Source: an uncultured archaeon
GTDB taxonomy: Archaea > Asgardarchaeota > Jordiarchaeia > Jordiarchaeales > Jordiarchaeaceae
DNA length: 32,000 bases
Assembly: GCA_964510585.1 (NCBI GenBank)
Contig: CAZECW010000140.1
Span: forward strand, 22,135 to 54,134
Direction: 5' to 3'
Shown here: one piece after another, positions 11,737 to 12,407 of the stretch
Numbering within the stretch: the stretch's first letter is position 1
How the letters are laid out: every line of letters begins with the position of its first letter
Program-made: the position numbers and the translations under genes
Notes under the pieces: generated by a model
The model's database searches: none
What the model was told of the DNA's origin: nothing
What the model saw: the letters and a program-made list of their open reading frames with translations, nothing else

Positions 11737-11861
11737 GGGCCCATAGCTCAGCCTGGTATGAGCGCCGCGTTACTCATACCCTACTAACAAGGGCATGAGG
11801 GCGAAGGCAAGCTATCCCAAAATCGCGGAGGCCGCGAGTTCAAATCTCGCTGGGTCCACCA
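11737..11861 (+). tRNA. tRNA-Ala(GGC) with two introns (11772-11805 at 33/34, 11810-11822 at 37/38) and a 4-nt anticodon exon; CCA encoded
   Basis: G3:U70 acceptor GGGCCCA/TGGGTCC-A-CCA, Ala-type D-arm GCTCAGCCTGGTATGAGC, stem CCGCG/CGCGG; spliced loop TT-GGC-AT. Confidence 0.85.
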
Positions 11862-12306: not shown

Positions 12307-12407
12307 TGGTGGACACTGCGAGATTTGAACTCGCGGCCTCCTGGATGCGAACCAGGCGCTCTTGGATACCGCTTGTTTGGCGGAATCTTCCACTGAGCTA
12401 AGTGCCC
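12307..12407 (-). tRNA. tRNA-Ala(CGC) with one 26-nt intron (12361-12386 at 22/23); CCA encoded
   Basis: G3:U70 acceptor GGGCACT/AGTGTCC, arm CCTGG-TT-CGC-AT-CCAGG, central helix TGGA/TCCA with outer CCGC/GCGG. Confidence 0.92.

Follow-up and report, generated by a model that had tools for sequence, protein, structure and literature searches.

How can a tRNA be made when its anticodon lies on an exon of only four nucleotides between two introns, and when the helix by which the second intron would be recognized spans a junction that only removal of the first can create? The question is raised by a gene in an archaeon of the Freyarchaeum lineage, in a window of 32,000 nucleotides (the whole stretch of DNA analysed, G000:C140:22135-54134, to which positions below refer unless a contig or locus is named) from a genome of 3.78 Mb in 217 contigs.

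The gene is genuine and encodes an alanine tRNA of an Asgard archaeon. On the plus strand, 11737-11858 scores 50.9 bits against the Rfam tRNA model (RF00005); none of the four arms is disrupted, and in the alignment a gap of 52 nt stands in for the five central anticodon-loop positions. The acceptor stem (GGGCCCA/UGGGUCC) contains the pair G3:U70 (11739:11854) and is followed by A73 (11858) and an encoded CCA, while the D arm reads GCUC...GAGC and the anticodon stem is formed by CCGCG (11765-69) and CGCGG (11824-28). G3:U70 and A73 are identity elements of alanine tRNAs, and both are kept in all nine orthologues. The two halves of the anticodon stem are separated by 54 nt instead of the expected 7, leaving 47 extra bases, and with U32 and U33 at 11770-71 and U38 at 11823, a parse into two introns is arithmetically exact. 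Splicing in silico gives a product (75 nt plus CCA) with a cloverleaf fold, and ARAGORN identifies the spliced form as tRNA-Ala(ggc) in nine of nine genomes. The Rfam match, the identity elements and these calls uphold the Ala(GGC) assignment made in the preliminary description, and its placement of a 34-nt intron at 33/34 and a 13-nt intron at 37/38, around an exon GGCA, also holds, since the coordinates check and the arrangement recurs throughout the genus. The features of the gene are as follows.

11737-11861 (+): whole tRNA-Ala(GGC) gene, including the encoded CCA (11859-61), from Rfam RF00005 and from ARAGORN on the spliced form.
11737-11771 (+): 5' exon, tRNA positions 1-33, with the acceptor 5' strand, the D arm, the anticodon-stem strand CCGCG, U32 and U33.
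11772-11805 (+): intron 1, at 33/34 and 34 nt long, whose hBHBh' motif is of the relaxed kind.
11773-11799 (+): intron-1 hairpin, h' CUCAU (11773-77)/AUGAG (11795-99) plus inner CCCU/AGGG, with pair probabilities of 0.92-1.0.
11800-11803 (+): GGCG, the 3' strand of the intron-1 central helix, opposite C28-G29-C30 and with a G31.G11800 mismatch; also a genome-specific decoy micro-exon.
11806-11809 (+): micro-exon GGCA, 4 nt, comprising the anticodon G34 G35 C36 and A37, invariant in nine of nine genomes.
11810-11822 (+): intron 2, 13 nt, at the canonical 37/38 position, of the bulge-helix-loop type, with CCAA (11817-20) opposite U32 U33 G34 G35.
11821-11823 (+): 3' bulge of intron 2, AA (11821-22) plus U38.
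11823-11858 (+): 3' exon, positions 38-73, with U38 (11823), the anticodon-stem strand CGCGG, the variable loop, the T arm, and the acceptor 3' strand with U70 and A73.

The boundaries of the introns were chosen by enumerating every way of keeping seven loop nucleotides (952 two-intron and 8 one-intron solutions) and scoring each against archaeal BHB geometry, in which each 3-nt bulge is cut between its second and third bases, and a 4-bp central helix H, lying between the bulges, is flanked by an outer helix h and an inner helix h'. A BHB was absent from all eight single-intron solutions, and the loop UUGGCAU ranked top or tied for top among the 952 two-intron solutions in each of the six Freyarchaeum species. 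The GGCA parse is the only solution that fits the BHB geometry while also being conserved and energetically sensible. In addition, A37 and U38 are fixed because GGCAU is contiguous in the gene of the sister family.

A competing set of boundaries arises from a tie on the crude motif score, which occurs in the window's gene alone, between GGCA and an exon GGCG at 11800-03 that the preliminary description had not noted. With introns at 11772-11799 and 11804-11822, this parse would yield Ala(GGC) with G37, either replacing the A37 form or produced beside it, and it can claim three of four central pairs, outer and inner helices of 3 bp each, and then the same perfect UUGG:CCAA helix. It is nevertheless very improbable. 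Its motif lies 21.5 kcal/mol above the MFE as opposed to 5.9 for GGCA, it must melt the intron hairpin with its near-certain pairs, and the tetramer is AGCG in the five other species, where it would give anticodon AGC and a mismatched second helix; the contiguous GGCAU of the sister family also speaks for A37. Being neither conserved nor, by the folding models, energetically relevant as an alternative exon, GGCG was rejected. A different reading again is given by ARAGORN, which calls no tRNA at 11737-11861 by default and, in intron mode (-i), reports a tRNA-Phe(AAA) with one 47-nt intron (11772-11818) after U33. That call has next to no likelihood of being right, and it was ruled out by motif, identity elements and orthologues: its boundaries lack a BHB (H pairs at two of four positions, and the flanking helices are absent), G3:U70 and A73 specify alanine, A34 is atypical for a tRNA-Phe, and the sister-family orthologues read GGCAU directly. 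Finally, the failure of default ARAGORN and the imperfect motif of intron 1 could be taken to mean that the gene is a decaying pseudogene or a mis-assembly, whose 47 extra bases are never removed. This is highly unlikely, given that the gene is the only one with a GGC anticodon among exactly three alanine genes (one each for UGC, GGC and CGC) found in a scan of the genome for Ala-type acceptor and D arms with G3:U70, while 55% of the alanine codons in open frames 300 or more codons long are GCU or GCC. Moreover, exons are invariant and splice-motif strands conserved across the six species and the sister family while loops drift, and the gene recurs in assemblies made independently, among them a closed genome and a metagenome contig.

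Two smaller points concern the decoys. A single A-to-G difference from the five congeners, at 11800, is what generates the second in-register GGC (GGCG), and the same change turns G31.A into G.G in the intron-1 helix. The preliminary description had also warned that the hexamer CTCATA of the intron-1 stem could mislead automatic tools into a Met/Ile(CAT) call; neither ARAGORN nor Rfam gives a CAT call, the actual mis-call being Phe(AAA), and the hexamer reads CCCATA in the five other species. The warning finds no support from these two tools, and it is a matter of annotation and not of biology.

Judged from its sequence, the motif of intron 1 belongs to the relaxed hBHBh' class. The outer helix h consists of two pairs, G26:C36 and C27:G35, and the central helix H has three Watson-Crick pairs (C28:G, G29:C and C30:G), with G31 mismatched opposite G11800. 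The spacing of the bulges, UU|A and AA|G, is correct, and the inner helix h', CUCAU/AUGAG, forms five perfect pairs and is extended by CCCU/AGGG; the single G.G mismatch and the perfect stem are both as first described. When intron 1 was shuffled, an H of at least three pairs together with an h' of at least five arose in 1.5e-4 of trials. The weak points of the motif are its three central pairs out of four, the purine-purine mismatch beside the 5' bulge, and the 2-bp outer helix. At position 31, the sister family has a G:C pair where the five congeners have G.A and this genome G.G. The MFE adopts a more stable register shifted by two (C30:G, G31:C, U32.G, U33:A/G), with the BHB register 5.9-8.5 kcal/mol above it, and this shift is conserved in the six species. 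The energy gap was considered as an argument against the BHB register, but this was abandoned since the sister family's perfect motif is likewise disfavoured, by about 6-7.5 kcal/mol; the gap is therefore not diagnostic, and reflects the bulge penalties of the model and not a defect of the gene. Chance alone has been reported to produce relaxed motifs at many boundaries (Goswami et al. 2026, preprint 10.64898/2026.10.13.758758). The argument for intron 1 is carried by the h' stem, conservation and covariation.

Intron 2 is of the BHL/hBH type and does not form the full hBHBh' motif. On the intermediate from which intron 1 has been spliced, its helix UUGG:CCAA has four of four Watson-Crick pairs and adjoins the 5-bp anticodon stem, which serves as h. 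The 3' bulge is AA|U38, and the 5' site, CA|A, lies inside the loop, where the inner helix h' amounts to at most one closing G:C pair and, in two species, to none. Four Watson-Crick pairs were obtained in 0.021 of trials when intron 2 was shuffled.

The dependence of intron 2 on intron 1 was modelled with nearest-neighbour energies at 37 and 60 C, free of protein. Immediately 5' of the intron-2 bulge, the primary transcript reads AAGG, so that only two of the four helix positions pair; the H2 pairs (U32:A, U33:A, G34:C, G35:C) have a probability of 0.000-0.002, and the anticodon stem one of 0.002-0.025. After deletion of intron 1, the probability of the H2 pairs rises to 0.36-0.54 and that of the anticodon stem together with UUGG:CCAA to 0.36-0.59, and the MFE structure is a cloverleaf in which the anticodon stem is extended by UUGG:CCAA, with a 3-nt bulge. 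The claim that the intron-2 helix requires the U32-U33-G34-G35 junction is thereby sustained, H2 being close to zero in the primary transcript and part of the MFE once intron 1 is gone. With the anticodon on a 4-base exon between the two introns, it follows that intron 1 would very probably be cut and rejoined before intron 2 is recognized, and the order of intron 1, ligation and then intron 2 is well supported in silico.

A less rigid scheme, in which there is no fixed order and EndA also cuts intron 2 in the primary transcript, deserves consideration. Here the anticodon stem would form with U32:A and U33:A stacked on it and G34:C and G35:C stacked coaxially, the intron-1 hairpin emerging from the middle of the helix as the third arm of a three-way junction. 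Because the CCAA strand is continuous, such coaxial stacking could in principle mimic a 4-bp helix, and broad-specificity (alpha-beta)2 enzymes are described as accepting bulge-helix-loop substrates (PMC4090602; PMC5829648). Furthermore, removal of intron 2 alone in silico leaves the fold of intron 1 unchanged, so the reverse order is not a dead end and merely lacks a substrate motif. We nonetheless regard free order as unlikely. When the three-way junction with the split helix is forced, it lies 10.7 kcal/mol above the MFE of the primary transcript and 7 above the plain cloverleaf conformer (itself 3.7 above the MFE), and the near-absence of H2 pairs from the primary transcript, together with pairing at half the helix positions of the linear sequence, weighs in the same direction. 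As for the preliminary description, which had called the order obligatory, the order of 1 then 2 finds support in the models, whereas its obligatory character is something we infer from structure models, which make a three-way junction costly, at +10.7 kcal/mol, without physically forbidding it.

The favoured explanation as a whole, namely a tRNA-Ala(GGC) with two BHB-type introns in its anticodon loop that are spliced successively, 1 then 2, is in our judgement probable; within it, the analysis establishes the gene, its boundaries and conservation, the geometry of the motifs, the model energetics and the presence of the enzymes, and we infer that cleavage takes place, that it follows this order and that ligation must come between the two cuts. 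In the first step, the 5' strand of the anticodon stem (28-30/31) would pair with the 3' end of intron 1 (RGCG), and the CUCAU/AUGAG hairpin would stack alongside, exposing the bulges UU|A and AA|G. A two-subunit EndA would then cut both bulges, and RtcB would join U33 to G34. In the second step, the product would refold to the cloverleaf, and the now contiguous U32-U33-G34-G35 would pair with CCAA of intron 2, extending the anticodon stem and presenting the 3' bulge AA|U38 and the looped 5' site CA|A, upon which EndA would cut and RtcB would join A37 to U38. In this scheme the 4-nt exon would always remain covalently attached to one larger piece; if all four sites were cut before ligation, the chemistry implies that GGCA would be freed as a tetranucleotide. 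A stronger form of the favoured explanation, to which we give an even chance, is that the tRNA could be made only by two strictly successive cycles of cutting, ligation and refolding, the 37/38 intron having been inserted beside an older 33/34 intron; on this same evenly weighted reading, the recognition helix of the newer intron would bridge a junction between exons that is present in RNA alone. Were the dependence absolute, the gene would be an extreme case of ordering at the RNA level for protein-spliced introns.

The predicted splicing machinery of the host comprises a two-subunit, (alpha-beta)2-type EndA and RtcB. Two EndA paralogues, of 192 and 198 aa, encoded in the regions of G000:C157:27039-27287 and C126:19921-20181, each carry both PF02778 and PF01974 (the N-terminal and catalytic domains), and the best match of one of them is the catalytic alpha subunit of the crenarchaeal heterotetramer of Aeropyrum pernix (3p1z_B, 2.8e-45). 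RtcB is encoded as well (PF01139, 578 bits). Asgard archaea have been stated to possess an (alpha-beta)2 EndA with a broad-specificity L1 loop (PMC5829648), and the two paralogues found here fit that published statement. As a separate observation, the sole rtcB gene (G000:C58:3702-5036; L170:247-1740) is interrupted by an insert of about 30 nt (near L170:466-495) that opens with an in-frame TGA and splits the conserved motif LPDT / HQGYGFPIGG; in appearance the insert resembles a BHB-type intron of the ligase's own mRNA.

Comparison of orthologues places the two introns in time. Both loop introns occur in the same layout in six of six Freyarchaeum species (this genome and five others), and the exons are invariant across the genus except at the acceptor pair 7:66, which has changed and is still paired. 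Throughout the genus, intron 1 ends in GCGAA and intron 2 in CCAAAA without variation, while the loop of the intron-1 hairpin and that of intron 2 drift in both sequence and length, intron 2 measuring 13-14 nt. Where this genome has GGCG as the 3' strand of H, the five other species have AGCG and the sister family CGCG. At the second pair of h', which is U:A in this genome, three species have C.A and two species, like the sister family, have C:G; between the genus and the sister family three further h' pairs have changed on both sides and are still paired. In the sister family, represented by three genomes and related metagenome contigs, a 22-23-nt intron with a perfect CGCG:CGCG central helix is present at 33/34, and the 37/38 intron is absent. 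This distribution suggests that the 33/34 intron is older than the divergence of the two families. Since the sister family has the 33/34 intron alone, the simplest history is that the 13-14-nt intron at 37/38 was a later gain in the genus. In a pattern scan of the phylum, the two related families were the only ones with matches; because the anticodon-stem sequence is fixed in the pattern, the lack of matches elsewhere in the phylum is uninformative on introns. A looser pattern, run on a collection of genome contigs, gave GC-rich bacterial noise only, while a scan of metagenomes returned mostly bacterial tRNA-Pro genes, along with four matches to relevant contigs, which added no new gene structure.

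Fragmented tRNA genes and ordered splicing are both already known. Nested archaeal introns, in which the last BHB forms only after the others have been removed, were described by Sugahara et al. (2007, RNA 13:671; 2008, MBE 25:2709) and Tocchini-Valentini et al. (2009, PNAS 106:20246), as cited in PMC3728597 and PMC3978253. The nested pre-tRNAs of the Thermoproteales resemble the present case in having several BHB or BHB-like introns per tRNA, sequential cycles of cutting and ligation, and a heterotetrameric EndA that accepts relaxed motifs, but their hosts are Crenarchaeota and not Asgard archaea, and here both introns lie inside the 7-nt anticodon loop, with a 4-nt exon that consists only of the anticodon and A37. 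Nuclear tRNAs of Cyanidioschyzon merolae also contain multiple BHB introns that are removed in a reproducible order, with the 37/38 intron last, as RT-PCR of splicing intermediates demonstrated (Soma et al. 2013, PMC3728597). In that alga, however, the motifs fold independently and the order follows their stability, whereas here the second motif needs the first splice. Closer to the present host, 92-95% of tRNA genes in Freyarchaeia and Atabeyarchaeia have been reported to contain introns, often several (Valentin-Alvarado et al. 2024, PMC11291895). The genes treated in that paper and in preprint 10.64898/2026.10.13.758758 come from the same lineage and have up to four or five introns each, many of them non-canonical, and micro-exons of 8-9 nt are tabulated, as for Arg-TCT of the closed Freyarchaeia genome (PMC11291895). 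Neither splicing order nor a 4-nt exon is discussed in the searchable texts of these two sources. The present analysis contributes a polarity for the gain of the introns, a decoy exon that was considered and rejected, the ARAGORN mis-call and the finding that the energy gap of the relaxed motif is non-diagnostic.

The gene also bears on published annotation. The closed genome G005, of the same genus, has tRNA coordinates identical to those of the published complete Freyarchaeia genome (Val-GAC at 1547486-1547561 and Ala-CGC at 1725052-1725167), which is indirect support for placing the genome of this window in Freyarchaeia. For that published genome, the tRNA table (Supplementary Data 4, PMC11291895) lists Ala-CGC and Ala-TGC only, without Ala-GGC, so that the annotation as tabulated there has no decoder for GCC and GCU codons. 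An Ala(GGC) orthologue with four introns is found at about G005:C1:1547141-1547326 (L005:1501-1686), where the table has no entry. A decoding gap is thus filled, the sole tRNA for GCC and GCU having been missing from the published table of a closed genome and missed or mis-called by the standard tools that were run. Beyond annotation, the gene offers a compact, conserved substrate on which to test whether archaeal EndA and RtcB have to take turns on a single molecule, and the dating of its second intron as a recent gain beside an older one is relevant to the accumulation of tRNA introns in Asgard archaea. The current understanding of archaeal tRNA splicing is unchanged.

The introns of the G005 orthologue are at 33/34, 37/38, 53/54 and 59/60, with exons of 4 nt and 6 nt. 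In the four-intron orthologues (G005, L005:1501-1686; G002, L006), the 59/60 motif uses T-loop bases 54-57 and the T stem, which become contiguous only after removal of the 53/54 intron, pointing to a second order dependence in the same molecule, in this case around a 6-nt exon, UUCGAA. All three alanine genes of the window's genome are interrupted. The tRNA-Ala(UGC) gene (G000:C126:27895-28016, plus strand) has an insert in its D loop and another in its T loop, and the tRNA-Ala(CGC) gene (window 12310-12407, minus strand), which lies 450 bp from Ala(GGC), has a 26-nt D-loop intron. The T arm, GCGAG UUCAAAU CUCGC, is identical in Ala(CGC) and Ala(GGC) (11829-11858) of this genome. In the loci compared (L005:1501-1686 and L152 among them), the Ala(GGC) genes of G005, G002 and the sister family have a different T stem, GCGGG/CCCGC, interrupted by the 53/54 and 59/60 introns, and in G005 Ala(CGC) is 178 kb from Ala(GGC). 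Gene conversion from the adjacent Ala(CGC) gene may have eliminated the two T-arm introns in the clade to which this window belongs.
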